Positions 3,900 to 48,455 of a DNA stretch of 64,000 nt are shown piece by piece. The stretch spans positions 4,227-68,226 of the forward strand of contig CAMYNM010000015.1 in the NCBI GenBank assembly GCA_947259725.1, given 5' to 3'. This DNA comes from Thermoanaerobaculia bacterium (GTDB lineage Bacteria; Acidobacteriota; Thermoanaerobaculia; Multivoradales; JAHEKO01). The notes under the pieces were generated by a model, which was given only the letters and a program-made list of their open reading frames with translations, was not told the origin of the DNA and ran no database searches. The position numbers and the translations under genes are program-made. Each line of letters begins with the position of its first letter. Position 1 is the stretch's first letter.

Positions 3900-5192
3900 A
3901 TGAATACCCGCACCGTCGTCGAAACGCCAATCCCGGAGCGCGAGGCCCAGGCTCTGAGAGAGGTGGGTACGACCCGAATCGGTCCCTGGACCGCGATCCT
4001 GCTTTCCTTCGCGGTCCTCGGCACGATCTCGGCCGTGCCGTTGTTTCAGGCGCTCGCCGATCTGCGCAATCCCGCCGCCGATCGACTCGCCCCCCGGCTT
4101 GTCCGCCTCGCGTCGGACGCGGCCGGAACCGTCACATTGCTTCGAACCTCCGGGTTCTTAGCGGTCAACAGGGGGCTCCAGGACGCCGTCGACAGCTTCG
4201 AGACCCGGGTCGAGGAGGAATCGATTCTGCGTGACCGGATCCTGCCGCCGGCTCAGCGCGTTCTCACCGACTTTCTCGGCGTCGGCAACGAGCAAGCCTA
4301 CCTGGGGCGCGAGGGCTGGCTCTTCTATCGTGAGGACTTCGAGCATGTCGCCGGTCGAGCGTTTCTCGACGTCGAGGCCTTGGAAGACAGCGAACGGTCG
4401 GCCGATCCGCTGCCGGCGATCCGGGAGCTCCAGGCCGAGTTGGCGCGCCGCGGGGCCGCGCTGGTGATTCTCCCGACCCCGGTCAAGCCCACCCTTCATC
4501 CCGAGCGCTTCGCGGCGAGGGCGAATCCTCGAGCCGCGCTCCACAATCGGTCGTACCCCGAGTTTCTCGATCGGCTGCGATCCTCAGGCGTCGAGTTTCT
4601 CGACCCTTCCGCGCCGCTGCTGGAGGCGAAGCTTCGCTCCGGCGAGCCGCTCTTCCTGCGCAGCGACACCCACTGGACGCCCGAAGCCATGGATCTGGTT
4701 GCGCGGGCTCTGGCCGACCGCGCGAACCACCTGGTCGCCTGGAACCGGCCACGACGTGAGTTTCGCCGACGCGAAACACCGGTCGTGGGATCCGGCGACA
4801 TCACCGCGATGCTCAAGATGTCCCACATCGAGCGAAGGTTTCCATCCGAGCGGGTCGTCACGTCGCGAGTCGTCGGCTCCGACGGCCGCTCGTGGAGGTC
4901 GTCACCCGATGCCGAGCTTCTCGTCCTCGGCGACAGCTTCACCAACGTTTATTCGGATCCCGGACTGGGCTGGGGCGCGGGCGCCGGACTGGCCGAGCAG
5001 TTGAGCTTTCACCTCCAGCGCCCGGTGGACCGGGTCGCGGTCAACGCCGGCGGCGCGCTGAGCTCGCGACAGGCCCTCGCGCGGGCGCTCGAAGGCGACC
5101 CGGCGAGACTCGGCGCGACACGTATCGTCGTCTATCAGTTCGCCGCACGCGAGCTCTCGACCGGCGACTGGCAGGTTGTGCCGCTACCCTAG
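3900..5192 (+). CDS. AlgJ/AlgX-like O-acetyltransferase partner (SGNH-like periplasmic domain with one N-terminal TM helix)
   Basis: Starts 2 nt after the MBOAT stop. N-terminal TM segment WTAILLSFAVLGTISAVPLF. FLRSDTHWTPEAM matches the D-x-H-W motif of AlgJ/AlgX N-terminal domains. Confidence 0.7.
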   Translation: MNTRTVVETPIPEREAQALREVGTTRIGPWTAILLSFAVLGTISAVPLFQALADLRNPAADRLAPRLVRLASDAAGTVTLLRTSGFLAVNRGLQDAVDSFETRVEEESILRDRILPPAQRVLTDFLGVGNEQAYLGREGWLFYREDFEHVAGRAFLDVEALEDSERSADPLPAIRELQAELARRGAALVILPTPVKPTLHPERFAARANPRAALHNRSYPEFLDRLRSSGVEFLDPSAPLLEAKLRSGEPLFLRSDTHWTPEAMDLVARALADRANHLVAWNRPRREFRRRETPVVGSGDITAMLKMSHIERRFPSERVVTSRVVGSDGRSWRSSPDAELLVLGDSFTNVYSDPGLGWGAGAGLAEQLSFHLQRPVDRVAVNAGGALSSRQALARALEGDPARLGATRIVVYQFAARELSTGDWQVVPLP

Positions 5193-5309
5193 GAGCTTGC
5201 GCAAGAACCCGGCGAGTCGCGCAACCACTTGGCGCCCTTCGGGTTGCGGCGGCCGAGCGGGCCGGTGCGTTATGATATTTCGCAAGTCGGACCCAGGAGG
5301 AGTGGGCGT

Positions 5310-6164
5310 TTGATTACTGCAGTGACCTCGAGGAAGGGTGGTGTCTCCAAAACGACCACCGCCGTCAGCGTGGCCGCGGCCCTCGCGGGCATCGGCAAGC
5401 GAGTGCTCCTGGTGGACCTCGACAGCCAGGCTTCGGCCTCCCTGTCCCTGGGCGTGCCCCGCTCGGCGCTGTTTCCCTGTCTCGCCGACATCCTGATGGG
5501 ATCGCGACCGGCAGCCGACACGATCCGATCGACCGCAACTCTCGGTCTCGACCTGATCACCGCTTCCGCCGATCTGCAGAGCTTCGAGCTGCAGATGGGC
5601 GGCCAGCCGGGCCGGGAGTCGGCTCTGAAAGAGGCGCTCGCTCCAATCGCGCCGCGCTACGACTTCATCCTGCTCGATTGCCCGCCCAACCAGTCGCTCC
5701 TCGCCCTCAACGGGCTGGTTGCCGCCGACAACTTCGTGGTGCCCATCGTGCCGAACTATCTCGCCGTCCAGAGCCTCGAGCCCCTGTTGTGGGCCGCAAA
5801 ACGGCTACCCGCGGCGCACGGCGTGAGACCACGACTTCTGGGAATCGTGCTCACCCAGGTCGACTACCGCACGCGCTCCGCGCGCGATCATGTCAACCGC
5901 ATACGCGAGCGCTTCGGCGATGCGGTCTTCGCCGTCGAGATCCGGATCAACGTACGGCTGGCCGAGGCTCCCGAATCCGGCCAGACGATCTTCGAGTTCG
6001 ACTCGAAGTCGGGAGGCGCCAAGGCCTACCGGCTCCTCGCTGCCGAAATGCTGATGCGAGCCCGAGCCCCTGAGGTGCCGAAGACCTCCACTCCGGGACG
6101 CAAGGTCACCCGGGTGGGCTTCCCGACGACCCCGCAGTCCCTCGGACGGACCGACCTCAACTAA
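5310..6164 (+). CDS. ParA/MinD-family P-loop ATPase (orphan, no parB seen)
   Basis: Deviant Walker A SRKGGVSKTTTAVSVAAALA followed by LLVDLDSQASAS. TTG start at 5310 chosen because AGGAGG (5295-5300) lies 9 nt upstream and a TATGAT box sits at 5271-5276. The track start at 5229 lies upstream of that box. Confidence 0.85.
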   Translation: MITAVTSRKGGVSKTTTAVSVAAALAGIGKRVLLVDLDSQASASLSLGVPRSALFPCLADILMGSRPAADTIRSTATLGLDLITASADLQSFELQMGGQPGRESALKEALAPIAPRYDFILLDCPPNQSLLALNGLVAADNFVVPIVPNYLAVQSLEPLLWAAKRLPAAHGVRPRLLGIVLTQVDYRTRSARDHVNRIRERFGDAVFAVEIRINVRLAEAPESGQTIFEFDSKSGGAKAYRLLAAEMLMRARAPEVPKTSTPGRKVTRVGFPTTPQSLGRTDLN

Positions 6165-6177
6165 GAGCGACTCGCCC

Positions 6178-6194
6178 GCCCGCGTGAAGCGGGC
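6178..6194 (+). terminator. Hairpin in the convergent gap after the ParA-like gene
   Basis: GCCCGC-GTGAA-GCGGGC (6 bp stem) followed by TCTAAAT. The T-tract is weak. Confidence 0.35.
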
Positions 6195-6206
6195 TCTAAA
6201 TGCGGC

Positions 6207-6425
6207 TCAAGCCCTCCGCAGCGCACGCGTACGCGAGCGCCAGACCACAAGATACGCTGCGGCTCCGAGAATGTAGGTGCTCACGATCACCAGCACCCAT
6301 ACCAGCTTGTCGATGTCCTTTTCGTGATCCCGGATCGCGCAGTCAATCAGCGCCCAGAACCACAGCACGGTGAGCGCGACGCCCGCACCGATGATCAGAA
6401 TCTCCGTCCAACCGACGCCAAGCAT
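6207..6425 (-). CDS. PLDc_N-domain small membrane protein
   Basis: WFWALIDCAIRD and two TM helices are typical of the PLD-nuclease-N small membrane family. ATG at 6425 preferred over the track start at 6446 because GAGGAGGA lies 5-6 nt upstream of it. Confidence 0.75.
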   Translation of the reverse strand: MLGVGWTEILIIGAGVALTVLWFWALIDCAIRDHEKDIDKLVWVLVIVSTYILGAAAYLVVWRSRTRALRRA

Positions 6426-6540: not shown

Positions 6541-7842
6541 GTGCTCACTCAAGCCTCCGCCTTCCGACTCGCCGGCACTCTGGTGCTCTGCGGCCTGCTG
6601 TCGCCTCTCACGTCTTCAGGGGCGCTCCTAGCTCACGAACCGAGGCCGGAAGCAGTCGAGGAAGCGATCCGCAGGAGCCTCCCGATCCTGCAGTCCGACG
6701 GCGAGGCCTGGCTGGAGGGCCGGATCCCGATTCAGGGCGGACAAGGCTGCGTTTCGTGCCATCAGGTGCCCTTTGGCATCTGGGGCCTCGAGGAAGCCGG
6801 GCGTGCCGGCATCGTGCTCGACGCGGCTCGAAGCGCCGACTTGGCCCGCCGAGCCGCGGAATTCATCGCCTCACCAGGCACTGCGCGGGCGATGTCATGG
6901 GGGCCGTTGGTTTTAGCAGCAAGCGATTCGGAGCAGATGATCCACGCCGGTTTTCCGGCCTTCGCGCTACAAGCGCAGGGGCCCGACGGCCACTGGGACG
7001 CCAAGGGACAGTTCCCCGAACAGAGGCGACCGCTGGCCGAGACCAACGCGGTGGCGACCATGTGGACGATGCTCGCTTTGCGTTCGTTCGGCGCGCCTGA
7101 GGCGGCCGCAGATTCGTCCACAGATGCAATTACCAAGACGATCGAGCGAGCCTACCGGTCGCTCACCGGCCGCGAAGGCGGCGAGAGCACCGAGTACGTA
7201 CTGCTTCGCTCGCTGATCGAAGAGCGGCTCGGCCAGTCCGCCGCAGGCAAGGACCTCCTCGATCGCCTCCTCGCGCGCCAGAACGCGGACGGCGGCTGGA
7301 GCTGGCTGCCGAACGAGGAGAGCAATGCGCTCTCGACCGGCCAGGTCCTCTACCGGCTGAGTCTCGTGCGGCCGCCGCGGACTCCCGAGCAAGACAGAGC
7401 GGTCGAACGCGCGACGGCCTACCTGGTCGAGACCCAGGCCGAGGGCGGGCTCTGGCCGGTCGCCAGCGTCCTCACCAGCGAGGGCGCGAAGCCAAGTAAG
7501 GACTACGTGTACAGCTACTGGGGCACGGCCTGGGCCACGATCGGGCTGGCTCGCACGCGCCCTCCGGATGATCCGATCGCGCCACGCAGGCTGAGCGAGC
7601 GGATGACGATCTCGCTCGTCGAGGCGCCGTTGAGGGTCGTTGCGTCCTATTTCGCGGCTCGGCTCGGCGCCGAGCTCGATCTGGACACCGAGCTCCTGGC
7701 CCGACCGGTGACCATCGAGCTCGACCATCAGAGTCTGAGAATCGGACTCGACGCCCTGTGCGATCAGATCCGGTGTGCCTGGCGTCTGGACCTCTCGCGG
7801 CGGCCACCGCGGCTGCAGTTCGTTCGCCGAGAAGCCCTGTAG
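6541..7842 (+). CDS. Secreted protein with a CxxCH heme-c-type motif and prenyltransferase/terpene-cyclase-like (alpha-alpha toroid) repeats
   Basis: Signal peptide. GGQGCVSCHQVPFG (CxxCH). Repeats QGPDGHWD, QNADGGWSW and QAEGGLWPV resemble squalene-cyclase/prenyltransferase repeats. Confidence 0.6.
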   Translation: MLTQASAFRLAGTLVLCGLLSPLTSSGALLAHEPRPEAVEEAIRRSLPILQSDGEAWLEGRIPIQGGQGCVSCHQVPFGIWGLEEAGRAGIVLDAARSADLARRAAEFIASPGTARAMSWGPLVLAASDSEQMIHAGFPAFALQAQGPDGHWDAKGQFPEQRRPLAETNAVATMWTMLALRSFGAPEAAADSSTDAITKTIERAYRSLTGREGGESTEYVLLRSLIEERLGQSAAGKDLLDRLLARQNADGGWSWLPNEESNALSTGQVLYRLSLVRPPRTPEQDRAVERATAYLVETQAEGGLWPVASVLTSEGAKPSKDYVYSYWGTAWATIGLARTRPPDDPIAPRRLSERMTISLVEAPLRVVASYFAARLGAELDLDTELLARPVTIELDHQSLRIGLDALCDQIRCAWRLDLSRRPPRLQFVRREAL

Positions 7843-7847
7843 GCACG

Positions 7848-8324
7848 ATGGAGTCGACCGAGCGGGACGCCGCCGCGGTCAGAATCCCGCCGCCCCTCGT
7901 GTATCTCACCGCGATCCTCGCGGGCGTCCTGCTGCAGCGCTACGCGCTCACGCTGCCGCTGGGCCTCAGCGACACGCTCCGGATCACCGCCGGCGCCGGC
8001 GCGACGCTCTTCGGCTTCGGCCTGCTGGTCGTCGCCGCGGCGCTTTTTCGCCGCACCGGACAGGACCCGAAGCCCTGGACCAGCACGCCCGCGATCATCT
8101 CGACCGGCGCCTACCGGCTCTCTCGCAACCCAATCTATCTCGGCATGGCGCTGATCCAGGCCGCCGTAGGGCTGCTCGCCGCCAACGGCTGGATCCTGCT
8201 GTCGCTCCCGCTGGTTCTCATGGCGATCCAGGTCACCGCCATCCGGCACGAGGAAGCCTATCTCGAGCGCAAGTTTGGCGACGCCTACCTACGCTACAAG
8301 GACTCGGTCCGGCGCTGGCTCTAG
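7848..8324 (+). CDS. Isoprenylcysteine carboxyl / phospholipid methyltransferase-family membrane protein
   Basis: GAYRLSRNPIYLGMAL motif and a hydrophobic profile. ATG at 7848 lies just after the upstream stop (7842). The track start at 7758 overlaps the previous gene. Confidence 0.8.
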   Translation: MESTERDAAAVRIPPPLVYLTAILAGVLLQRYALTLPLGLSDTLRITAGAGATLFGFGLLVVAAALFRRTGQDPKPWTSTPAIISTGAYRLSRNPIYLGMALIQAAVGLLAANGWILLSLPLVLMAIQVTAIRHEEAYLERKFGDAYLRYKDSVRRWL

Positions 8325-8351
8325 GAGCTCTTGACCGGACGAGCCACCTGA

Positions 8352-8915
8352 CTACCGGGTACGCGAGCGCCAGTCCTGCTCGAGAAGGCCAAAAAACGCC
8401 GAATCGAAGAGCTCACCGGCCACCACCCAGCGCTCCCTGAGATATCCCTCACGCACGAAGCCGAGCCGCTCGAGCAGGGTGATCGACGCCTGGTTGCCCG
8501 GATCGACGTCCGCCTCCAACCGATGGAGACCCATGCCGGAAAAGGCGAACTCGAGGAGAGCCGCGAGTCCTTCCGTCATCCAACCCTTTCCCCAGTGGTC
8601 CCTGGCGAGCGCGAAGCCGATCTCCGCGCGACGGCTCTGGTGATTGATCTGCCAGATCGTGCAGGTTCCGATGACCTTGTCGTCTTCGGCACGGCATAGG
8701 CCCCACTGCAAGAACCGCTGGGTCTCAAGGCCCTTCGCGATGTCGTCCAGGTACTCTCCGACCTGCCCCTCGCGGGTGAACGGAGGATGACTCCAGTAGC
8801 GCATCACCTCAGGGTCCGAGAAGATGGCAAACAACGAATCGGCGTCGTCGCGGTTCAATGCCCGCAGCCGAACCCGCCCGTTTTCGAGGACCGGAAGAGC
8901 CTCCAACCGAGTCAT
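8352..8915 (-). CDS. GNAT N-acetyltransferase (RimJ/RimL-like)
   Basis: LRALNRDDADSLFAIFSDPEVMRYW, WGKGWMTEGLAALLEFAF and HRLEADVDPGNQASITLLERLGF are typical of Acetyltransf_3/GNAT proteins. Confidence 0.85.
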   Translation of the reverse strand: MTRLEALPVLENGRVRLRALNRDDADSLFAIFSDPEVMRYWSHPPFTREGQVGEYLDDIAKGLETQRFLQWGLCRAEDDKVIGTCTIWQINHQSRRAEIGFALARDHWGKGWMTEGLAALLEFAFSGMGLHRLEADVDPGNQASITLLERLGFVREGYLRERWVVAGELFDSAFFGLLEQDWRSRTR

Positions 8916-9579: not shown

Positions 9580-10239
9580 TCAGTCCGGCTGCGGGACGAC
9601 CCGGATGTACGGCAGCGGCTGCTCCCAACCGTCCGGATACCGCTTCTTCGCTTCTTCGTCCGACACCGCCGGGAGAATGATGACGTTGTCCCCCTGCTCC
9701 CAGTTGGCGGGCGTAGCCACCTGTCGCGTGGCTGTGAGCTGGCAGGAATCGAGCAGCCGCAGGATCTCAGCGAAGTTGCGGCCGGTGCTCATCGGATAGG
9801 TGAGAGTCGCCTTGATCTTCTTGTCCGGGCCAATGATGAAGACCGACCGGGCCGTCGCGTTGTCGACCGGTGTCCGCCCCTCGCAGGTCTCACCGGCATC
9901 GGCGGGCAGCATGTCGTACAGCTTGACCACCTCGAGCTCGGGATCACCGATCAGCGGGTAGTTTAGGGCGTGGCCCTGTGAAACTTCGATGTCTTTCGAC
10001 CACCGCATGTGATCGTTCACGCCGTCGACGCTGATTCCCAGCACCTTGCAGTTTCGCTTTTCGAATTCAGGCTTGAGACCGGCCACGGTTCCCAACTCGG
10101 TCGTGCAAACCGGGGTGAAGTCCTTCGGATGGGAAAACAGAACCGCCCAGCCGTCACCGATCCAGTCGTGGAACTCGATCGAGCCTTCCGTCGTCTCGGC
10201 GGTGAAATTCGGCGCAGTGTCGTTGATTCGCAGCGTCAT
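9580..10239 (-). CDS. 1-Cys peroxiredoxin (Prx6 type)
   Basis: PKDFTPVCTTELG peroxidatic-Cys motif, with the whole sequence resembling AhpC/TSA plus the 1-cysPrx C-terminal region. ATG at 10239 is preceded by GGGAGGA. Confidence 0.92.
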   Translation of the reverse strand: MTLRINDTAPNFTAETTEGSIEFHDWIGDGWAVLFSHPKDFTPVCTTELGTVAGLKPEFEKRNCKVLGISVDGVNDHMRWSKDIEVSQGHALNYPLIGDPELEVVKLYDMLPADAGETCEGRTPVDNATARSVFIIGPDKKIKATLTYPMSTGRNFAEILRLLDSCQLTATRQVATPANWEQGDNVIILPAVSDEEAKKRYPDGWEQPLPYIRVVPQPD

Positions 10240-19485: not shown

Positions 19486-20208
19486 ATGGTTTGGAAGCTT
19501 ACAAGCGACAGCCGGATCTCGGCACGAGCCCTGGAGCGGCAGATGAACAATTGGGAGCTGGCTCGACGACAGCGCCTCGAGCGTTCGCGGGTGAGGGCCG
19601 AGGTCGAGGACTTCATCACGATCTCGAGGCAGCCCGGGATACCCGCCGAACGCATCGCCGACGTCCTCGCTACCCACTTCGGCTGGCCTGTTTTCGGTCG
19701 CGGCTTGCTCGAGGCCATGGCCGGCGACGACGCGGTGCGTCGCAGGATCTATCGATCGATGGACGAACGCGACTTGCACTGGTGGGAGGAAGCGCTTCGC
19801 GGCCTCCTTGACCGGGAGTTCAACGTCAACGACTACTTTCATCGCCTGAGCCACACGGTCTTGTCGCTGGCTCGTCAGAGCCCGTGCATCTTCGTCGGCC
19901 GCGGCTGCGATTTCATACTGCCGCGCCATCTCGGCCTCCGCGTCCGGCTGGTGGCGCCGCTCGAGCCTCGCATCGCCGCAGTCGCCGAGGAGCATGGCTG
20001 TTCGATGGAGGAGGCACAGCAACAGATCGAGCGCGTCCAGACCGGGCGCCTGGAGTACCTTCGCCGCCACTTCGGCGACCGCGCCTTCGCCGAGGAGAGA
20101 GCCGACCTGGTGATCAACCTCGGGCGCTGGGACGCGGACGGAACAATCGAGGTGATCCTGGAGGCGTATCACAAGCGCCTGCGGCCGGCGGTAGCGGCCG
20201 CTTCATAG
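19486..20208 (+). CDS. Cytidylate-kinase-like family protein
   Basis: FITISRQPGIPAERIADVLA and CIFVGRGCDFILP resemble the cytidylate-kinase-like (PF13189-type) family. AAGGAGGA SD and a CTAGACT box (19450-19456) lie upstream. Confidence 0.65.
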   Translation: MVWKLTSDSRISARALERQMNNWELARRQRLERSRVRAEVEDFITISRQPGIPAERIADVLATHFGWPVFGRGLLEAMAGDDAVRRRIYRSMDERDLHWWEEALRGLLDREFNVNDYFHRLSHTVLSLARQSPCIFVGRGCDFILPRHLGLRVRLVAPLEPRIAAVAEEHGCSMEEAQQQIERVQTGRLEYLRRHFGDRAFAEERADLVINLGRWDADGTIEVILEAYHKRLRPAVAAAS

Positions 20209-20870: not shown

Positions 20871-22535
20871 CTAAGGCCGTACCTCGACTCTGGTCGAGAG
20901 GACGTTTCCGGTCGGCACATCGCGCACGGTCACGATCAGATCATGTTGCTCGCGACGAAGGGTGACTTTCATCTCGTAGTAGATGAAGCTGGTGTCCTCC
21001 GGGTAGACCGGGGCAAACAGCGGAGCGGCGAGCTTCGCCGGCAAAGTCACCACGTCCGAGAGCGTATCGCGACGGTCACGCACGCCGAGCGAGATCTCGA
21101 CGTTCGCCAGAAGCTTCCCGCCGACGGGCACCATCGTGATGCGGCGGGACGGGATCCCGATCGTGACCGGAAGCGTCATCTGGCGTCTGGAGGCGGGACG
21201 GGGCTCGCCGACCTCGATCGACAGCTCGCTCGCCCGGTCGCCTCCGGCGAGCAGCAACCCGCCTTCGACCAGCATCTTGGTCTCCGCGAATCGCGAGAGA
21301 TCGACAAATTCTCTCCGAGCGCGAACCTCGAGACCAGGCTCGAGGACATCGATCTCGACGCCATGGCGCCGGTCGTCGGCGCGCACCACGGCAGTGAAGC
21401 CGATCCAGTAGTACGACCGGGTATCGGCCACGGCCTCCTCCAGAGCGCGCGACCGAAGATCGTTGAGCAGCGCCCGGCCGCCGGTCCGGCGGGCCAGCTC
21501 GAGCAGCACGGCTTCCTCGCTTCGCTCCGAGGAACCGAAGCCGGCGCCCACGGCATCCGCGTCGGCTGCCGGCCCGCTCCAGCCCAAACCCGCGACGTCG
21601 ATCGGGTAGAGCGTGAAGCCGAGGTGATTGGCGGTGTCGGCGAGCGCCGCGTACGGGTCGAAACCGGCACGGAACCGAAGCAGCTCGAGCCCGTCTTCCC
21701 GGTCCTCGCGGAAGCCAAAAAGCGCAGGATCGCCGCGCTCGAGCCCCTCGGGCTCGAGCGGCCAACCTCCCGACAGCAGCAGCATCGCCTTGCGCCCCTC
21801 GGGCGCGGACAGGCCGCGCATCCCGGAAGCTGCGGCGTTGACCAGAACCTCGATCTGTCCGCGCAGCTCGGCCCGGCGATTCTCGATCATCGACGCGGGA
21901 ACCCTGTCCTCCTCCAGACCGAAGCGACTCGAATCCTCTAAGGCGCCGCGGCCGGGCAGCCGGGAAAGAAAGCTCCGCCTCTCCATCCGCCGCCATACGC
22001 CACCCGTAGCTCGTTCGGCGGCGCTCGCGAAGGCCAATCGCAACTGGCTCGCGGATCGGGTCCAGCCGCTCAGAATCTCCAGGCGGCGCCCGTCGAAGGC
22101 CAGGATCGCCATCTGGTCGCTCGGGCCGAGTCCCTCGATCTGCTCGGCCAACCGCTTCAAGACGACGTTTCGCTGTGCCTTGATCGCGAAGAAATCGTCG
22201 ACGAAAACCAGAAAGTGCGTCGGCACGGTGCGTCCGTTGCTTCCCTGGATCGTCAGATCGAGCGGGAGCCCACCGCCGTCACTCGGGTCTCCATCTCGAA
22301 TCTCCGAGAAGAACTCGATCGGTACCGTGGCGCCGTCCACGGCGAGACGAAAGCTCTCTCGGGTGAGGCCCTCGACCCGCTTGCCATCGCGATCAGAGAC
22401 CACCGCTTCGACGTTGATCACCCGTACCTCGATGGCCTCCTCGAAGACCGGCGGAAGCTCCTGTGCCGTGGAGCTAGCACCGATCAAGGCCGACAAAGCG
22501 TAGGCCACCAGCGAGTCGCGATTCATCCTGTTCAT
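20871..22535 (-). CDS. VWA-domain protein, acidobacterial TIGR03436 type
   Basis: N-terminal FEEAIEVRVINVEAVVSDRDGKRVEGLTRESFRLAVDG followed by the VWA-like core FLVFVDD...LAFDGR. Start set at MNRMNRDSLVAYALSAL (signal peptide); the ORF is open to 22610. Confidence 0.8.
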   Translation of the reverse strand: MNRMNRDSLVAYALSALIGASSTAQELPPVFEEAIEVRVINVEAVVSDRDGKRVEGLTRESFRLAVDGATVPIEFFSEIRDGDPSDGGGLPLDLTIQGSNGRTVPTHFLVFVDDFFAIKAQRNVVLKRLAEQIEGLGPSDQMAILAFDGRRLEILSGWTRSASQLRLAFASAAERATGGVWRRMERRSFLSRLPGRGALEDSSRFGLEEDRVPASMIENRRAELRGQIEVLVNAAASGMRGLSAPEGRKAMLLLSGGWPLEPEGLERGDPALFGFREDREDGLELLRFRAGFDPYAALADTANHLGFTLYPIDVAGLGWSGPAADADAVGAGFGSSERSEEAVLLELARRTGGRALLNDLRSRALEEAVADTRSYYWIGFTAVVRADDRRHGVEIDVLEPGLEVRARREFVDLSRFAETKMLVEGGLLLAGGDRASELSIEVGEPRPASRRQMTLPVTIGIPSRRITMVPVGGKLLANVEISLGVRDRRDTLSDVVTLPAKLAAPLFAPVYPEDTSFIYYEMKVTLRREQHDLIVTVRDVPTGNVLSTRVEVRP

Positions 22536-22946
22536 AATACGGATGGCGAGCCACTCATGGCTTGCCCTAGCGTCGAAGAGAAGAGACCGGACGCTGCGGG
22601 ATTCTCGCACGGATGACCGCCGGCGAGCATCAGCCGGGGCCGCTCTTCAATAGTTCCCTCAGACCCTTTTCACGAGTCGACGGTTGACGACCGGGCCGGA
22701 CCGCTCGCGATTCAATTTTCTGCATCGAGTGCCCAGAATCTTGAAGTCGCGCCGATCTCGTGTTGGGCTCGGCAACACCGATTGTTTTTGACGCTTCGCG
22801 GCAACTCAATGCCGCGACTCGGCATACGGGTGCATATTCTTGAATCGACTCGACAACATCGTCGAGCCTCAGCGCCCGATCTAGATCTCTAACTTGCTGT
22901 TCTAAAACGGTTTATGACGTTGTAAGAATTTCGTGGCAGTGGCATT

Positions 22947-29044: not shown

Positions 29045-29917
29045 CTACCCCGTTGGGCTTGGATTGAACCCACCAACCGGTTTCAATCTATCGTCGTCTT
29101 GGACCGCCAGGCTCCGCTCCTCGACCTCGTGGCTCGAGCCGACCTGCAGCAGCCGGCCCTCCCCGACGGCGTTCCAGCCGTTGCGCTTGGAGAGCGGCTC
29201 GGAGGCGACCAGAACCGACCGTTCGCCGGTATCCCCGTCAAAGACCCGCCAGTAGAGAGTCGGGCGAACGCCGTCGGTCAGAGCGAAGCGGGTGGCCACG
29301 AGCCGCACGCCGTCGGTCACACAAAAATTGAGCTCCACGGGCCGTGTGTCGTCCACCTCGCGGTGCCAACCGGCGATCCGCCGGACCGTCTCGTCCATCG
29401 CCTGGGAAAGCTGCGCCAGCGACACTTCGTCTTCGGGCGGCGCCCCAAGCTGGGTCAGAAAAAGCGTGAAGGCGAGCTCGCTGTCGGTCGTGCCCCGGAT
29501 CATGCCCATCAGGCCGTCGTCGGCGAGCAAGTTGACCTGGCGCGCGAGACGCACGCGGCCCGGTATGTCGCCATTGTGCATCCACAGGAGCCGCCCGCGC
29601 CGAAACGGGTGGCAATTCTCGCGCGACACGGGATCGTAGGAACGAGCCGCGCGAATGTGGACAACGATCGAAGGCGAGCGGATCTTGCCGGCGATCTCGC
29701 CCAGATTGTAGTTGTTCCAGACCGGGGTTACATCCTTGAACACGGCGGGCTCGGGGCTGATCTCCGGCGCGTACCAGCCGACGCCGAAGCCGTCCGCGTT
29801 GACCCGGGTCGGACTGAGGGTGGCATCGGTGGCCTGATGAACCAGGCTGTTGGCGGGCTTGTAGATCAGCTCGCTGAGCAGAAGCGGCGAGCCCAGGTAG
29901 GCAGCGTAGCGACACAT
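29045..29917 (-). CDS. Class II (Ntn-type) glutamine amidotransferase, YafJ/EgtC-like
   Basis: Begins MCRYAAYLG, with Cys2 as the Ntn nucleophile. Also VNADGFGVGWY, HIRAARSY...NCHPF and WMHNGDI. The track ORF start at 30382 is a false extension. Confidence 0.8.
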   Translation of the reverse strand: MCRYAAYLGSPLLLSELIYKPANSLVHQATDATLSPTRVNADGFGVGWYAPEISPEPAVFKDVTPVWNNYNLGEIAGKIRSPSIVVHIRAARSYDPVSRENCHPFRRGRLLWMHNGDIPGRVRLARQVNLLADDGLMGMIRGTTDSELAFTLFLTQLGAPPEDEVSLAQLSQAMDETVRRIAGWHREVDDTRPVELNFCVTDGVRLVATRFALTDGVRPTLYWRVFDGDTGERSVLVASEPLSKRNGWNAVGEGRLLQVGSSHEVEERSLAVQDDDRLKPVGGFNPSPTG

Positions 29918-30027
29918 TGGTCGAATCTCCCAGACGCACCGGCGCTCGACGCCGGAACGATTCGATCCAACCCTAGGATGGTTCCAAGGCCGCCGAAACC
30001 CCCTAACGGGTGGGCCTTTCGAGCCCG

Positions 30028-30555
30028 CTACTCGAGGCAGGCGGCGCGGATCTGCTCGTCGGTGAGCCCGGCCCGGGCCATGGCCGCCACCTGCTCCAGG
30101 GTGCAGGAGCCGTCCCGCAGATCGGTCTCGCCCGCCGCAGCGCCAGCGGATCCGACGGCCCGCTCGGGCTCTGGCTTCGGCGGCTCGTACGCCATCTTGA
30201 CGAGCTTGGCGCCAGCCTGCTGAATGTACTCCGGGTCCGAGTTCCGCTCGCAGCCGACTCTCTCGTCTCCATCCTCGAAGTAGAACTGAGCCCGAATGCT
30301 GGCATTCGCCGAATCGTCCGCCTGGCCGGTCTCGGATTCTTGCTCGAGGATCTTCATGTGGCTGAATCCCGCGGCGACGCACAGCGATGCGGTCTTGGTA
30401 TAGACGAGCTTCATCGCCTTGCCCCGCAGTCCGATGACCTTCACTCGGTGGCTCACGACAAAGACATCGTCGTCGAGCTGGGTGAAGGTAATGACGGCCA
30501 CCGCCGCCTGCGGCAGCAGAACCAGAACGAGCAACAGGGCGAAGATGTTTCTCAC
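30028..30555 (-). CDS. Secreted hypothetical protein
   Basis: Signal peptide MRNIFALLLVLVLLPQAAVA. AAGGAGA SD 7 nt upstream of the GTG start. A CTAGAAT box lies 35 nt upstream. No domain recognised. Confidence 0.5.
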   Translation of the reverse strand: MRNIFALLLVLVLLPQAAVAVITFTQLDDDVFVVSHRVKVIGLRGKAMKLVYTKTASLCVAAGFSHMKILEQESETGQADDSANASIRAQFYFEDGDERVGCERNSDPEYIQQAGAKLVKMAYEPPKPEPERAVGSAGAAAGETDLRDGSCTLEQVAAMARAGLTDEQIRAACLE

Positions 30556-31897: not shown

Positions 31898-31939
31898 AAC
31901 CGCTTGGGAAGAAGCGTCTCGCGGCCACTTCCGCCGCCG

Positions 31940-32155
31940 CTAGCTTTTCGAAAGTGCTCGGATGCCTTTGAGCACCAACAGCAGCCAGGGCGCCGCGTGG
32001 AGCAGCAGGTCGAACCAGTCGATCGGCCGGACCAGCCGGCCTTGGGCCAGCATCTGAAGCTTCTCAAAAAGATGCGGCGGCGCATAAGGCGCCAGCCCGA
32101 TGGTCAGGCAAAGAAGCACCAGCACCGACCAGGGCAGCGTATCCAGCCATCCCAT
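31940..32155 (-). CDS. Small two-TM membrane protein (a family often mislabelled 'RND transporter')
   Basis: MGWLDTLPWSVLVLLCLTIGLAPYAPPHLFEKLQMLAQGRLVRPIDWFDLLLHAAPWLLL matches a conserved small-protein family I recognise. It lies 9 nt after the upstream gene. Confidence 0.6.
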   Translation of the reverse strand: MGWLDTLPWSVLVLLCLTIGLAPYAPPHLFEKLQMLAQGRLVRPIDWFDLLLHAAPWLLLVLKGIRALSKS

Positions 32156-32164
32156 GACCGCAGC

Positions 32165-32641
32165 CTACCGTCCCGCGCCGGTCAGGGGCAGACCTCGGTA
32201 GTAGCGCGACAGTACGTAGACCCAGAGCGCCAGGACCCAATGAAAGTAGATCGGGATGGTGGCCGGCGACCAGGGCAGCTCCACCGGAGCCCAGACGGTC
32301 ACCACGTACCGCGCGAGCATCACCAGGAAATAGACGACGCTGAACCACTTCAAGCCGGCTCCGACGCGTCGGCGTCGGCCGGCGAAGCGGCCGTAGCCGG
32401 TCCACAGATGACGGACCGTCGCGGCCTGGTATGTCAGGATCGCGATCTGCGCCACGAGGAGAGCGGCGTACTGCAACAGCCCCGAGTCCCAGGCCTCCAT
32501 CGGCGGCAGCCACTCGACCCCGAGAAACGCAACGCTGAACTGGCCGGCGACCCGGCCGAAGAACGCAAGCGTCAAGATCGCCAGCACGATGGCGTAGGCT
32601 CGGGCCGGAGGCTGGGCCTCGAACCGATCTCTGGAGGTCAT
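32165..32641 (-). CDS. Integral membrane protein, function unknown
   Basis: Four predicted TM segments (AYAIVLAILTLAFF, YAALLVAQIAILTY, WFSVVYFLVMLARYV, IYFHWVLALWVYVL). The ATG at 32641 directly abuts the divergent ATG at 32642. An in-frame TTG at 32659 is an alternative start. Confidence 0.55.
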   Translation of the reverse strand: MTSRDRFEAQPPARAYAIVLAILTLAFFGRVAGQFSVAFLGVEWLPPMEAWDSGLLQYAALLVAQIAILTYQAATVRHLWTGYGRFAGRRRRVGAGLKWFSVVYFLVMLARYVVTVWAPVELPWSPATIPIYFHWVLALWVYVLSRYYRGLPLTGAGR

Positions 32642-33754
32642 ATGACGAAGTCTACTCAAATCGCGCCATGGCGCATTCTGGCGGGGGCAATGCTCCTCGC
32701 TGTGGCCGGCCCGAACGCGTCGAAGGCGACGCAGACGCAGGACGCTCCCCAGTTCGAGGAGCGGATGGACGTCACCGAGGTTCTGCTCGACGTCGTGGTC
32801 TCCGATCGGGACGGCAACCTGATCGCAGGGCTCGACAAGACCGATTTCATCATCACCGAGAATGGTCGCGAGATGGAGATCACCGGAGCGCAGTTCTACT
32901 CCACGCGCTACGGCGACTTCGGGTCCGGCACACCGACGACGGGCGAGATCCCCGCGAGTCGCTACTTCATATACTTCTTCGATGATCCGCGGACGATCGC
33001 AAACCGCTACAACCGGCTGATCCGGCAGCACCTCGACGCGACCCGGGACGCCAGAGACTGGATCGAAGAGGACATGATGCCTTCGGACTGGGTGGCCATA
33101 GCCGGCTACGGCCTGAAGCTCAAGATCTTTCAGGACTTCACCCAGGACCGCGAAGCTCTGCTTCTGGCGCTCGCCGACGCCTCACGGGGGATCGACCCGT
33201 CCAAGAGCGGCTGGACGCGGGAACCTGCCGCAGCGAGCGCCCCTTCGCTGCTTCGGCACCTCCCGGAGGGCCGCGAGCTCGGGCGCCGCACGCGTCGCAT
33301 CTACTCGGCAATGGAGCTTCTGGCGGACGCGACCGGCCACATCGTGGGTCGAAAGAGCCTCCTCTACTTCGGCATCGGCTTTGGAACCCTCGACGGGTCT
33401 GACGGCACCGCGAGACCGGATCGCCGCTACTATCGGGATCTCCAGCGCGCGCTCAACGACAACAACGTCGCGGTCTACCCGATCGATCTGACCGTCCAGG
33501 GAACCCGGCATGCGCAAAGCGGCTTCCTGAACACGCTGGCCTTCGACACCGGTGGCACCTATTTCCGCAACTTCGTTTCGTTCGTCACGCCGATGCGCGA
33601 GATCGCCGAGGAAAACGTCGCTTACTACCTCCTGAGCTACCGCTCGGCGCACCCGCGGGGCGAACGCGGTTACCAGAAGGTCAAGGTTGGGGTCCGCGCG
33701 CCGAATCTCAGCGTGCGAGCGGCCCGCGGCTACGGCTACGGCTACGACGAATAG
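32642..33754 (+). CDS. VWA-domain protein, acidobacterial TIGR03436 type (paralog of 20871-22535)
   Basis: GGAGG SD 4 nt upstream. Signal peptide MTKSTQIAPWRILAGAMLLAVAG. FEERMDVTEVLLDVVVSDRDGNLIAGLDKTDFIITENG followed by YFIYFFDD. The track start at 31904 is a false 246-aa extension. Confidence 0.8.
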   Translation: MTKSTQIAPWRILAGAMLLAVAGPNASKATQTQDAPQFEERMDVTEVLLDVVVSDRDGNLIAGLDKTDFIITENGREMEITGAQFYSTRYGDFGSGTPTTGEIPASRYFIYFFDDPRTIANRYNRLIRQHLDATRDARDWIEEDMMPSDWVAIAGYGLKLKIFQDFTQDREALLLALADASRGIDPSKSGWTREPAAASAPSLLRHLPEGRELGRRTRRIYSAMELLADATGHIVGRKSLLYFGIGFGTLDGSDGTARPDRRYYRDLQRALNDNNVAVYPIDLTVQGTRHAQSGFLNTLAFDTGGTYFRNFVSFVTPMREIAEENVAYYLLSYRSAHPRGERGYQKVKVGVRAPNLSVRAARGYGYGYDE

Positions 33755-44681: not shown

Positions 44682-45209
44682 CTAACCGAACGCTTCCGGG
44701 TCCATCCCGGCGCCGGTCGCCAGCTCGGCGAGCCGCTCGAGTTGCTCGGGTCGGAGCTCGAGAAACAGGCCCGTCGAACGCGCCGCCACGGACCCGTCCG
44801 GAAGATCCAACCGGGCGCGGACGTGAACCTTGCGCCCGTTCACCCCCTCGATCCGCGCGTCGAGCGTTCCCACCGCTCCGAGCGGCACCAGCGCCAGAAA
44901 ATCGACTTCAATATGGGCCGCCACGACTCGGTGGCCTGCGATCCAGGCGCTAAAGCCCATCGCCTCGTCGAGCAGCGCCGCCAGCGCTCCGCCGTGAACG
45001 TGCCCGGGAGGGCCCTGGGACCCTGGTCCGAACCGCACCCGGGCCTTCAAAACTTCGGCTCCGATCGGCCTGAAGTAGCGCACCAGGAGGCGGCGACCGT
45101 CGCTTTCGCCCGAGACGTAGGACTCGGCCGTCCGAGCCTCGTTGAAGCGCTCGATCGATTCCCAGCCGGCTTCGCCGGCGAGGTCCGGGTGGGTGAGATC
45201 GTCGATCAT
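44682..45209 (-). CDS. PaaI-family hotdog-fold thioesterase
   Basis: PGHVHGGALAALLDEAMG motif. Start set at MIDDLTHPDL (45209). Confidence 0.8.
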   Translation of the reverse strand: MIDDLTHPDLAGEAGWESIERFNEARTAESYVSGESDGRRLLVRYFRPIGAEVLKARVRFGPGSQGPPGHVHGGALAALLDEAMGFSAWIAGHRVVAAHIEVDFLALVPLGAVGTLDARIEGVNGRKVHVRARLDLPDGSVAARSTGLFLELRPEQLERLAELATGAGMDPEAFG

Positions 45210-45347
45210 GGCGCTCGGCGCCCGGAGACGCAGAGCCACTATGCACTGCCGACTCTCGAAGACGCAACCCGTCGTCGCACGGGCTTCGGTCGGCCTCGGC
45301 CGCCCGCGATAGGATCGCCTCTTTCGAATCACCTTTGGAGGAACGCC

Positions 45348-45935
45348 ATGCCCTCACGAATCCAGCCGATCACCAAAGACGACACCGACGATGCCGATCT
45401 CAAGCAGCTTCTCGTTGACGGCGAGGAAGGCTGGTGGCATGACACCGAGATGTTCGGGGTCATCGCAAGGGTGCCGGATCTCTTGAAGAGCATCGTCCCG
45501 GTCTTCGGCTCGTTTTTCGGCGGCGGCCGAGTCGAGCCGCACATCTTCGAGATGATGCGGGTCAAGACCGGCCAGATGAACGACTGCCATTACTGAAGCA
45601 CCGTTCGCACCGCTGCCGTGCGCAGCGACGTGGAGCCCAAGGAAGAAGCGATCCTCTCCGGCGACTATTCGACTCTCTCGAGTCGTGAGGCGATCGCCGT
45701 CGAGCTGGCCGAGCGCATGGCCATGGACCCACATTCGGTCACCGATGAGTTCTGGCAGAGCCTCAAGGAGGAGTTCTCGGACGACGAGATAGTCGAGCTC
45801 GCTTTCGCGACCAGCATCTTCAACTGGGGCAACAAGTTCAACATCACCATGCGCCTCGACACCGACGGCAACGAGTATCCGAAGGGCATGAAGTACAAGG
45901 ACGCACCCACTTTCTGGCGGCGAGGCGAGACCTAG
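45348..45935 (+). CDS. Carboxymuconolactone decarboxylase / AhpD-like family protein with an in-frame TGA (45594-45596), a candidate selenoprotein (C-x-x-U)
   Basis: GGAGGA SD 5 nt before the ATG. Track ORFs ending at 45596 and starting at 45618 are in the same frame and are separated only by the TGA and sense codons. The joined 195-aa product reads ...RVKTGQMNDCHY[TGA]STVRTAAVR...DDEIVELAFATSIFNWGNKFN, so the TGA sits where the family's second CxxC cysteine lies. Confidence 0.7.
45608..45632 (+). promoter_or_regulatory. Candidate bacterial SECIS hairpin
   Basis: It starts 11 nt after the UGA. CAC-CGCUGC / GCAGCG-(AC bulge)-GUG gives 9 bp, with apical loop CGUGC (the G-U is in the loop). Confidence 0.5.
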
Positions 45936-45941
45936 GCGGCA

Positions 45942-46277
45942 CTATTCGGCGGGGGGCTCGACGTCGAGGTCGGTCTCGCCGCCGACGACCTGGAAATGGT
46001 CGATGGCATCACGGCGCTCGACGAGGAAGCGTTCGTCTTCCGGAAAGTAGATCGCCTGGCCGATGTCTTCGCCGGCGAATCCCCTGATCGCCTCATCCGA
46101 CTCCCAGAAGGAGAGCACCAGGAACTCCGCCCGATCGTCTCGGATTCGGCGCAGAACGAGCGATCCTCGGTTGCCCGGGGTCGAGCGGTGCGCGCGAACC
46201 CCCGTCCGTTCCAGGTACTCGACGTAGGACTCGGCGTCTTCCGGACGCGTGCTGCCGAACCAGAGCCTCGCGATCAT
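45942..46277 (-). CDS. ABM-like (dimeric alpha/beta-barrel) monooxygenase-fold protein
   Basis: About 110 aa. LVLRRIRDDRAEFLVLSFWESDEAIRGFAG is typical of the ABM fold. It lies 7 nt after the DyP stop. Confidence 0.6.
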   Translation of the reverse strand: MIARLWFGSTRPEDAESYVEYLERTGVRAHRSTPGNRGSLVLRRIRDDRAEFLVLSFWESDEAIRGFAGEDIGQAIYFPEDERFLVERRDAIDHFQVVGGETDLDVEPPAE

Positions 46278-46284
46278 GCCTGGG

Positions 46285-47778
46285 CTAGCCGCCTCCCGCC
46301 AGCGCGTGCAGACCGGCGATACTGGGCGCGAAAAAATACTCGCCGCCCAGGAGCCTCACGTGCTCATCGAACCGTATTCGCTTGCGGCCGCTCGAGCCGT
46401 GGCCGGTCGGCCAGTTCGGTGAGTCGTCGGGTCCCGCGGCGCCGCCGGCCTGCCCGACGATCGGATCCAGGCCGGTGCCCTGCTCGCTGAACTCGGGGTT
46501 GTTGGCCCACGAACGCTGAATGAACTCGAACTGATCTCGAATATCGTTCTGGAAGCACATGAAAAGCAGGCCGACCGTGCCGTTGTCCTCGTCGGTATAG
46601 GTTATCCCGCGGCGAGCGATCCGGCGCCGCTGCTCGCGGGCGAGGATGTTGACCAGGAAGCCGAGCGAGCCGCGCGGATTGACCTTTCGGACATGCGCGT
46701 GTAGAGGGCACTTGCTGCCGTCGGGATCCCGGTCGTAGTCGAAGTCCTCATCGCGGCGCGGATCGTAGCCCGGCTTCGGCCCCGCCTGCGTCGCCACCGG
46801 GGTTCCGTTCTTGAACCGGCCGATAGCCATCGCGCCAACCAGCTCCGGCTCCTGCCCGAGCTCGCGCGCCACCTTCTCGACCGCCGCTTCAAACGACTTC
46901 ACGTTCTGCTCGAGCTTGCGATAGACGAGATAGCTGCCGAATCCGCCCCGAGCGTGCCGATCCGGTTCCAGAACCAGATTCAACGGAGCCCGCTGGTCGT
47001 AGTGTCGGGCGGCGGGAGCTGCGTCATGAACGAACTGCGGCTGACTGACACCGTCGGCGTACCCGAAGTGCTCGATTGCCCGGCGCTTGGGAGAGCTGTC
47101 GCGCTCCTGCCGACCGCGCTCGTCGACCAGGATCGAACCGCCGGCCGCGGCGAGCTCGCGATCGATGGGCTCCTTGATGGAGTCCAGAGTCTCGGGATCA
47201 CGCGCGGCAACGATGACCAGAGCGTGAATCTCCGCGGCGTCGCGCTGATACCTGGGCTCCCAGGCTCCGACCGGAGCATCCCCGAGCCGGCGGCCGCGCT
47301 CCTGCATGCCTTCTCTGAAGGCTCCGTCTCTAGGTCTCTTCTCACCCAGAAACTCGTAGCCCCGGCTGCTAAGCATCAACGTCGTCAGGGTCGTCTCCCG
47401 GGCCCTGTCCTGCCACTGGGCCGCCGCCGAGGTAACCCGAGTGTCGGTCATCCGCCCGATCCAGGCTCTGATCCTGGGCACCGCCGCGGCGTGGGCCGCC
47501 TCGTCGCGAGGTCGGCCGAAGCAGACCAGAAGATGCATGGCGTGATCACGCCCGTGTCCCTTGAGGATGTTCCCCTGGAGGCCGGCGAGGAATGCCATGG
47601 CCTCCGGCGTCGTAGGGTCGAGCGGCCGGTCGGAGTCGATGCCGGGCGGAAGGCTCCTGCCTTCGATCAGCGCTTCGACGCTCTTCAGGCCGTCGGCGGC
47701 GGTTTCGAGCACGGTGACGCCCGTCCGCAGGTAGAGAACCATGGATTCTCGCCAGAGTTTCTCCAGCGGGCCTAGCAT
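46285..47778 (-). CDS. Dyp-type peroxidase
   Basis: LQGNILKGHGRDH, FGYADGVSQPQF (GxxDG) and IARRGITY (distal Arg region). ATG at 47778 is preceded by GGGAGGAAGGGGG. The track start at 47970 is a false extension. Confidence 0.85.
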   Translation of the reverse strand: MLGPLEKLWRESMVLYLRTGVTVLETAADGLKSVEALIEGRSLPPGIDSDRPLDPTTPEAMAFLAGLQGNILKGHGRDHAMHLLVCFGRPRDEAAHAAAVPRIRAWIGRMTDTRVTSAAAQWQDRARETTLTTLMLSSRGYEFLGEKRPRDGAFREGMQERGRRLGDAPVGAWEPRYQRDAAEIHALVIVAARDPETLDSIKEPIDRELAAAGGSILVDERGRQERDSSPKRRAIEHFGYADGVSQPQFVHDAAPAARHYDQRAPLNLVLEPDRHARGGFGSYLVYRKLEQNVKSFEAAVEKVARELGQEPELVGAMAIGRFKNGTPVATQAGPKPGYDPRRDEDFDYDRDPDGSKCPLHAHVRKVNPRGSLGFLVNILAREQRRRIARRGITYTDEDNGTVGLLFMCFQNDIRDQFEFIQRSWANNPEFSEQGTGLDPIVGQAGGAAGPDDSPNWPTGHGSSGRKRIRFDEHVRLLGGEYFFAPSIAGLHALAGGG

Positions 47779-47906
47779 GTCCCCCTTCCTCCCTGCACCG
47801 CGAAAACGCTGATGTTCATTGATTCTGGAGCGCAGTCTAGCAAAGCGATCCGCACAGGGCGGTGGTATGATTCGGTTTTCGCCAGATACACACCGAGGAG
47901 GAGCCC

Positions 47907-48455
47907 ATGAAGAGACTCTCGATCGTAATGTTGACTCTTGCCGTCGCCGCCACGACCGGCGTGCCGGCATGGGCCGGTGTCGACGCCGCGTCGGTGTTCG
48001 ACCAGCTCAAATCACTCGAGGGCACCTGGACCGGTACCCCTGAGGGCAAGGGCGAGGAGGCCGAGGCGGAAGCCCGGGCCAAGCCGCACGCCGTCCACGA
48101 GTTCGAGGTCTCGGCGGGAGGCACTGTGGTGATGGAGACCATGGCTCCCGGTTCGGACCACGAGATGATCAACATGTACCACCTCGACGGCGAAGACCTG
48201 CTTCTCACGCACTACTGCGCCGGCGGAAACCAGCCGCGCATGCGACTCGACCGGGAGGCGAGCTCTGCCGGCGACCTGGTGTTCGCATTCGACGGCGGGA
48301 CCAACCTCGACCCGGCCGTGGACGAGCACATCCATTCGGCTCGCATCCGCATCCTCGAAGACGGCGGCCTCGACAGCATCTGGTTCGCGCAGGCGAGCGG
48401 CGAGGCGGCCGGCGAGATGGCCTTCCGCCTGACCCGAGCGGAAGCCGAGAACTAG
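47907..48455 (+). CDS. Secreted hypothetical protein
   Basis: GAGGAGGAG SD. Signal peptide MKRLSIVMLTLAVAATTGVPAWA. Conserved-looking HYCAGGNQPRMRL. No family name that I can assign with confidence. Confidence 0.6.
   Translation: MKRLSIVMLTLAVAATTGVPAWAGVDAASVFDQLKSLEGTWTGTPEGKGEEAEAEARAKPHAVHEFEVSAGGTVVMETMAPGSDHEMINMYHLDGEDLLLTHYCAGGNQPRMRLDREASSAGDLVFAFDGGTNLDPAVDEHIHSARIRILEDGGLDSIWFAQASGEAAGEMAFRLTRAEAEN

Follow-up and report, generated by a model that had tools for sequence, protein, structure and literature searches.

Positions 45348-45935 on the forward strand of a 64,000-nucleotide stretch of Thermoanaerobaculia DNA (phylum Acidobacteriota; GenBank assembly GCA_947259725.1, contig CAMYNM010000015.1, positions 4,227 to 68,226; hereafter the window) very probably form a single gene, in which an in-frame UGA is read as selenocysteine (Sec) to give a 195-residue AhpD-like selenoprotein. 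An earlier note, made from the letters of the window, had proposed the same reading. It is upheld here by the alignment of the TGA with a conserved cysteine, by the exclusive use of TGA as the interrupting codon across homologs, by a covarying hairpin specific to TGA-containing forms, and by the linkage of a related gene to selB and tRNA-Sec in another organism.

The gene begins at an ATG (45348) that lies 6 nucleotides (nt) downstream of a Shine-Dalgarno-like GGAGG read from the sequence at 45337-45341. This start is backed by the N-terminus M-[PAT]-[ST]-R-[IV], which is kept in homologs. The open reading frame (ORF) list breaks the locus in two: one ORF ends at 45596, and a second, in the same frame, starts at a GTG at 45618, with seven sense codons between them. 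Reading through the TGA at 45594-45596, codon 83, joins both ORFs into a frame of 195 codons that closes with a TAG at 45933-45935. The product reads ...GQMNDCHY[TGA]STVRTAAV... around the interruption, and its translation, its homologs, and its profile and fold matches all describe one complete coding sequence. On re-reading, every coordinate given in the earlier note (the ATG, the TGA, the two same-frame ORFs, and the 195-residue read-through product) proved exact. Its forecast that the gene would be annotated as fragments also came true, as public records of metagenome-assembled genomes (MAGs) list the locus as separate 82-residue and 105-residue products.

Homologs place a catalytic-type cysteine exactly at the interruption. 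Protein searches returned two classes of relatives. The first consists of full-length proteins of 190-205 residues that are 45-60 % identical to the window protein. The second comprises the closest relatives (72-83 % identity), all of them 107-116-residue "fragments" that start just past the TGA position. When the full-length homologs are aligned, the second and invariant Cys of a C-x-Y-C motif falls in the TGA column, as the earlier note had expected.

The interrupting codon is TGA without exception. We scanned one genome per species for homologous loci, which returned 80 loci, and scored the aligned codon in 79 genomes. It was TGA in 69 (the window included) and TGC in 10, a ratio in which Sec forms are favoured because the search patterns were derived from them; TAA and TAG were each found zero times. 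TGA forms occur in at least nine lineages, among them Thermoanaerobaculia/Acidobacteriota, Alpha- and Gammaproteobacteria, Acidimicrobiia, Pseudonocardiales, Chloroflexota, Gemmatimonadales, Entotheonella, Polyangia, and Chthoniobacterales. Those in the window's own lineage (Thermoanaerobaculia/Acidobacteriota) are 77-89 % identical, and one TGA form belongs to a cultured actinomycete, Haloechinothrix halophila YIM 93223 (locus L030). Ordinary genes in the window use a mixture of stop codons (24 TAG, 16 TGA, and 4 TAA among 44 genes), and an ordinary stop at codon 83 would therefore not always be TGA.

Protein conservation extends across the codon. Upstream, the N-terminal half is conserved in loci with enough sequence 5' of the TGA. 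The exception is a locus in an Acidimicrobiia MAG (L028; OZ241390.1, ~9750-9990), where the N-terminal half falls out of frame 5' of roughly codon 68 and the C-terminal part is conserved; this pattern suggests either a long-read indel error or a real pseudogene. Downstream, the uninterrupted Cys forms have an invariant V86 and R87, and the stretch right behind the TGA (x-T/A-V-R) carries the same two residues. Because both are invariant in Cys and Sec forms alike, we conclude that the ribosome reads on beyond the UGA.

A rough neighbour-joining tree, drawn without branch support values, places Sec and Cys forms among one another. The Acidimicrobiia Sec clade has an actinobacterial Cys clade as its neighbour, and a large Cys clade adjoins a Chloroflexota Sec clade. 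The topology hints at several independent conversions between Sec and Cys within the clade, together with some transfer across phyla.

The mRNA just past the UGA can fold into a hairpin. The minimum-free-energy fold of 45588-45650 holds a 9-bp hairpin at 45608-45632, 11 nt past the UGA, with a 2-nt bulge and the loop CGUGC. From the TGA onward, the alignment of all 69 TGA forms is gapless, so the hairpin has identical spacing in all of them. RNAalifold, applied to this alignment, returned one helix, in which columns 24-29 pair with columns 35-40. These correspond to window positions 45611-45616 (CGCUGC) and 45622-45627 (GCAGCG), and the whole core, loop included, spans 45611-45627. The helix starts 14 nt after the UGA, and its 5-nt loop (45617-45621, CGUGC) begins 20 nt after it.

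This helix covaries. Compensatory double changes occur at four of its six pairs (in 8, 21, 16, and 7 sequences, or 52 cells), the two loop-closing pairs are invariant, and only 9 of the 414 cells across the 69 sequences are broken. The observed covariation score was reached by none of 500 shuffles. Of the cells in the full 13-pair structure, 84 % pair; shifting the 3' partners by 1-3 columns lowers this share to 28-46 %. Several of the double changes replace an amino acid on each arm, as in the change from GCU...AGC (Ala...Ser) to ACC...GGU (Thr...Gly), and are therefore not the product of protein-level selection. Synonymous variation is scarce: at codons +7, +8, and +9, which make up the top of the helix and the loop, the third positions have entropies of 0.32, 0.37, and 0.00 bits, compared with 1.3-1.9 bits at other four-fold sites. 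In 65 of the 69 TGA forms the loop reads CGUGC or CGUGA, and its G and U are invariant throughout. Moreover, the helix is a property of the TGA forms, which make 5.87 of the six pairs, versus 2.40 of six for the same columns in the 10 TGC forms.

Below the sixth pair the structure is less constant. The three lower pairs of the 9-bp hairpin (45608-45610 with 45630-45632, separated from the core by the bulge at 45628-45629) can form in 38 %, 100 %, and 81 % of the 69 sequences. The latter two show zero double changes; the outermost shows 10 double-change cells and is unpaired in 43 of 69 sequences. The further 4-bp lower stem of the minimum-free-energy fold (45603-45606 with 45633-45636) is not conserved, and we dropped it together with the pair 45608·45632, as these positions, the invariant outer G-C pair excepted, are unpaired in roughly one-third to two-thirds of sequences. 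Of the 9-bp hairpin described in the earlier note, then, the upper six pairs hold up as covarying and specific to TGA forms, whereas the lower three lack covariation support. By this comparison, the supported element is a 6-bp helix with a 5-nt loop, and the lower part is optional or unproven. The position of helix and loop fits the general geometry of bacterial selenocysteine insertion sequence (SECIS) elements, and the distance from UGA to loop lies within the bSECISearch range.

In an isolate, the family is directly linked to the Sec apparatus on the genome. The Haloechinothrix halophila locus contains a tRNA-Sec with anticodon TCA (8787-8881, minus strand), detected by ARAGORN. Adjoining it is a selB gene (6936-8702, minus strand) that scores 288 bits against TIGR00475, above the cutoff of 242. 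Both genes lie 1-3 kb from the TGA ortholog, and only a TetR-like gene stands between. An IS256-family transposase (4936-6303; NF033543, 416 bits) is found directly downstream of selB, with no further sel gene there; the sel locus may have been disrupted or rearranged.

What kind of protein does the gene encode? Profile and fold searches place it solidly in the AhpD/carboxymuconolactone decarboxylase (CMD) superfamily, with a predicted all-helical AhpD fold, and just outside the curated subfamily models. The CMD-family label of the earlier note fares accordingly: Pfam PF02627 (CMD) matches the window protein at 16 bits (E = 0.012), below its gathering cutoff of 23, whereas the superfamily assignment stands. 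Precomputed PF02627 matches are present on some Cys homologs. In JGI records, homologs are named "alkylhydroperoxidase family enzyme" or "uncharacterized peroxidase-related enzyme", names that we take to be those of COG2128 and TIGR01926.

Curated NCBIfam models recognise the protein and fall short of their cutoffs. The best E value, 1.6e-15 over the full length, is to NF053654 ("GroundWater_YciW, YciW-related (seleno)protein"), at 57.3 bits against a cutoff of 310. NF041238 ("AhpD_rel_CFYUT alkylhydroperoxidase-related (seleno)protein") scores 18.9 bits against a cutoff of 175. Because these two scores lie far below their cutoffs, NCBI annotation leaves the gene split. TIGR01926 ("peroxidase-related enzyme") gives 56.6 bits (E ~1e-15), short of its cutoff of 81.8. 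Its matches to all of the 22 Cys homologs tested are likewise weak, with a best E of 2.1e-18; one of these homologs, P0012, scores 50.4 bits. No curated NCBIfam model reaches its cutoff, and on these scores the clade is a sister group of TIGR01926, not a curated member of it.

Structural comparisons agree on the fold. A profile of the family, searched against AhpD/CMD structures in the PDB, matches PA0269 (2ijc) with E = 1.7e-13, as well as Bmp8, 2oyo, 6k40, and others. The match to PA0269 aligns the CxxC motif residue for residue ("INGCAYC" with "INDCAYC"). We also used an AlphaFold model of the Cys homolog P0012, which is 57 % identical to the window protein (predicted local distance difference test score, pLDDT, 88.6). 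The best 35 PDB matches of this model, which represents the homolog and not the window protein, are all of AhpD/CMD type, with template-modelling (TM) scores of up to 0.76. Against the D. radiodurans AhpD structure 6k40 and against 2oyo, the TM score is ~0.75.

The alignment also outlines a putative active site. Residues E68, C80, Y82, C/U83, V86, and R87 are invariant and yield the signature E-x11-C-x-x-U-x3-R. In the window, Glu68 (codon at 45549-45551) stands 11 residues before Cys80 (TGC, 45585-45587), the first residue of the C-x-x-U redox motif and an invariant Cys across all homologs. Codon 83 would supply Sec83, and the fourth residue after it is the invariant Arg87 (45606-45608), which falls within the stretch that gene callers treat as intergenic. 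The E68-x11-C80-x-x-U83 spacing is thus present in the window protein. The active site of AhpD-type enzymes, as established for M. tuberculosis AhpD, is E-x11-C-x-x-C-x3-H, the same signature with His in place of the final Arg. PA0269 likewise carries His four residues past its second Cys (C-A-Y-C-V-N-M-H). This substitution of Arg87 for His may reflect a mechanistic difference. In M. tuberculosis AhpD, the second Cys of the CxxC pair is the nucleophilic cysteine.

Combining these observations, we propose how the gene would be decoded and what its product might do. The mRNA hairpin 14 nt past the UGA, with its CGUGC loop and invariant G-U, would recruit SelB-GTP carrying Sec-tRNA(Sec). The complex would insert Sec at the UGA (45594-45596), and the ribosome would go on to the TAG at 45933. 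The product would be a thiol/selenol oxidoreductase of AhpD fold with the active site E68-x11-C80-H-Y-U83-x3-R87, in which Sec83 would take the place of the second Cys of the CxxC pair. Sec83 would presumably cycle between a selenolate and a selenenylsulfide with Cys80. Its putative substrates are peroxides, peroxiredoxin partners, or other molecules in oxidised or halogenated form. In the Thermoanaerobaculia source organism, Sec insertion, the binding of SelB to the hairpin, and the choice of substrate are all inferred.

Several results weigh against this reading. Taken alone, the hairpin of the window folds no better than dinucleotide shuffles of the same GC-rich sequence (-16.4 kcal/mol, z = +0.46; 127 of 200 shuffles were as good), and it therefore counts as evidence only through the comparative data. 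Those data have limits of their own, in that the covariation counts are drawn from phylogenetically related sequences, and the helix lies within coding sequence, where selection on the protein could account for part of its conservation. Rfam searches, run on the whole window at gathering thresholds and permissively on 45500-45750, returned no SECIS or other credible family, only two chance-level matches on the opposite strand. As for the Sec machinery, ARAGORN found no tRNA, and thus no tRNA-Sec, in the 64-kb window, and an NCBIfam scan of 20 size-matched window ORFs found no selA, selB, or selD. A tblastn search with the Haloechinothrix SelB gave no match in the window or in the other loci, and motif patterns for SelA and SelD, used with no positive control, gave none in the window. 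Finally, the arrangement of 4HBT, ABM, DyP, and GGDEF genes around the locus, described below, recurs in part in the nearest relative (L001) and in none of the other loci, and so gives no functional clue.

Could the locus instead encode two small proteins, one of 82 residues ending at the TGA and one of 105 residues starting at GTG 45618, which would assemble into a non-covalent split AhpD-like enzyme? Gene callers output exactly these two ORFs, and potential restarts are common: 46 of the 69 TGA forms have a GTG at codon +8, and 16 have an ATG at +1. The restart position is not uniform across the TGA forms, however, and no purine-rich Shine-Dalgarno sequence lies ahead of 45618. The GUG that is frequently conserved is the apical loop of the covarying hairpin, and the codons that separate TGA from GTG (T-V-R-T...) show conservation at the protein level, matching V86 and R87. 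An N-terminal piece ending in ...C-H-Y would moreover remove the second redox residue from the active site, and the stop is TGA in 69 of 69 cases, never TAA or TAG. Two independently conserved genes in relatives, which the earlier note had singled out as the pattern that would tell against a selenoprotein, were not seen; V86 and R87 are kept, and the sole shared restart is the GUG in the hairpin loop. We consider a pair of genes highly improbable.

A pseudogene, or a sequencing or assembly error, would require that a Cys codon (TGC or TGT) was mutated to or misread as TGA. A single base change from TGC suffices, and MAG assemblies do contain errors, as the apparent frameshift of the Acidimicrobiia locus illustrates. 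Yet an identical 588-nt gene is present in two public MAG assemblies, GCA_945787635.1 (CALZIK010000021.1) and GCA_945786845.1 (CALZGD010000107.1). Over window positions 35942-56277, the first of these MAGs is identical to the window at 19867 of 20336 bases in an ungapped comparison, and the second at 20015 of 20050 bases. Together with the TGA at the same codon in 68 further genomes from many phyla, this excludes the assembly error about which the earlier note had been concerned. Purifying selection on both sides of the codon and the specific co-occurrence of the hairpin with TGA speak against decay of the gene, and an explanation by error or pseudogene is scarcely credible.

The UGA might also be read through without Sec. 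It could be decoded by a near-cognate or suppressor tRNA (as Trp or Cys), Cys could be carried on tRNA-Sec, or leaky termination could sustain the gene in a lineage that no longer makes Sec. The failure to find Sec machinery in the 64-kb window would fit such a reading, as would the interleaving of Cys and Sec forms in the rough tree, which suggests that switches are frequent. Global reassignment of TGA is excluded, as 16 of the 44 window genes stop at TGA. Against non-Sec decoding in general stand the constant spacing and invariant loop G-U of the hairpin, features that a SelB ligand should have, and the presence of selB and tRNA-Sec within 1-3 kb of the Haloechinothrix ortholog. The codon also occupies the catalytic Cys position, where Sec is a documented replacement in this protein class (PMC1088965, PMC2398784). 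Non-Sec decoding is thus very unlikely, and a single gene with Sec at codon 83 remains our preferred reading.

The genes next to the selenoprotein gene are as the earlier note described them. Divergent from it is a 4HBT thioesterase (44682-45332, minus strand), and convergent with it are a DyP peroxidase (46285-47970, minus strand) and an ABM protein (45942-46277, minus strand). In addition to these, a GGDEF protein lies further upstream. The note had seen a redox theme in this neighbourhood. Its conservation does not reach beyond the nearest relative, which shares it in part, and we reject the functional argument built on it.

Other observations in the window concern separate genes. The only other in-frame TGA with flanking coding signal, at 2419-2421, was considered as a second selenoprotein candidate and rejected as the ordinary stop of the gene at 100-2421. 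A DltB/MBOAT-like gene (2428-3897) starts with GTG two codons past this TGA, in the same frame. On the minus strand, an ORF at 29045-30382 encodes a protein resembling EgtC, of ergothioneine biosynthesis. It matches TIGR03442 over residues 156-420 only (173.7 bits against a cutoff of 218.65); the ~155 residues that precede the match would be an N-terminal extension or the result of a miscalled start. Two proteins with VWA domains (20871-22610, minus strand; 31904-33754, plus strand) match the Acidobacteria-specific TIGR03436 above cutoff, and these matches are consistent with a Thermoanaerobaculia/Acidobacteriota origin of the window.

The practical consequence of these findings is an annotation gap. 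The enzyme is reported as two fragments in this MAG and apparently in dozens of genomes from at least nine lineages. The 69 TGA forms and 10 TGC forms, combined with the covarying 6-bp SECIS core, suffice to build protein and SECIS models that would fix these annotations, and the cultured Haloechinothrix halophila YIM 93223 is identified as an organism in which Sec insertion and enzyme function can be tested. Biologically the gene adds little. AhpD-like selenoproteins of the CxxU type have been on record since 2005, and they rank with the most abundant selenoproteins of the sea. A bolder proposal, which we think rather unlikely, is that the clade is a Sec-dominated sister family of TIGR01926 with its own signature (E-x11-C-x-Y-U-x3-R) and a chemistry other than AhpC recycling, such as Bmp8-like reductive dehalogenation or small-molecule reduction, and that the GUG of the SECIS loop serves as a fallback start at low selenium.

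The decoding element and the protein each have known counterparts. Like the SECIS of E. coli fdhF, the hairpin directly follows the UGA inside the ORF and has an apical loop with a G-U that is essential in fdhF. It differs from fdhF in sequence, its conserved helix is shorter (6 bp), and its bulge is not demonstrably conserved. Among enzymes of AhpD fold, the best Foldseek E value (9.6e-06) is to the debrominase Bmp8 (6ohi, 6ohj), a marine reductive dehalogenase that depends on a CxxC motif. Bmp8 shares the ~195-residue length class and a near full-length profile match (E = 1.7e-08) with the window clade. Unlike Bmp8, to which identity is 15-16 %, the window gene has no bmp cluster nearby, and nothing indicates halogenated substrates. 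AhpD and "peroxidase-related" AhpD-core structures (6k40, 2oyo, 2prr, 3c1l) match with TM scores of 0.72-0.76 over ~181-188 aligned columns and, as is established for the motif of M. tuberculosis AhpD, share the E-x11-C-x-x-C spacing. These are all Cys enzymes, however, at 14-23 % identity, and M. tuberculosis AhpD has His where the window clade has the invariant R87.

Closest in kind are selenoproteins of the same superfamily. NF053654 and NF041238 are curated selenoprotein families of the AhpD/YciW superfamily, as the window protein is a predicted selenoprotein of it, although the window protein is a member of neither. The AhpD-like class is well documented, which confirms the earlier note's statement that it was already known. 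The Sargasso Sea study of 2005 introduced, as a new selenoprotein family, an "AhpD-like protein" that has a CxxU motif (COG2128), with 27 sequences (PMC1088965). Among the selenoprotein families of the Global Ocean Sampling (GOS) data, "AhpD-like 1" ranked fourth in abundance in 2008, with 299 Sec sequences and 902 Cys homologs (PMC2398784). A 2026 review places the AhpD-like family under TIGR01926 (PMC13188914), and BSepDB holds a page for it. The window gene resembles this family in superfamily and fold, in the Sec that would replace the second Cys, and in a SECIS hairpin inside the ORF just past the UGA; in both, Cys homologs are widespread and Sec forms mostly marine-metagenomic. This comparison is with the published descriptions of the family. 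The window clade differs in falling short of the TIGR01926 cutoff. Thermoanaerobaculia/Acidobacteriota hosts are not mentioned in the AhpD-like selenoprotein papers (PMC1088965, PMC2398784, PMC13188914). Judged by its sequence, the window gene is an unannotated instance of the known AhpD-like selenoprotein class, in a clade just outside the curated models.

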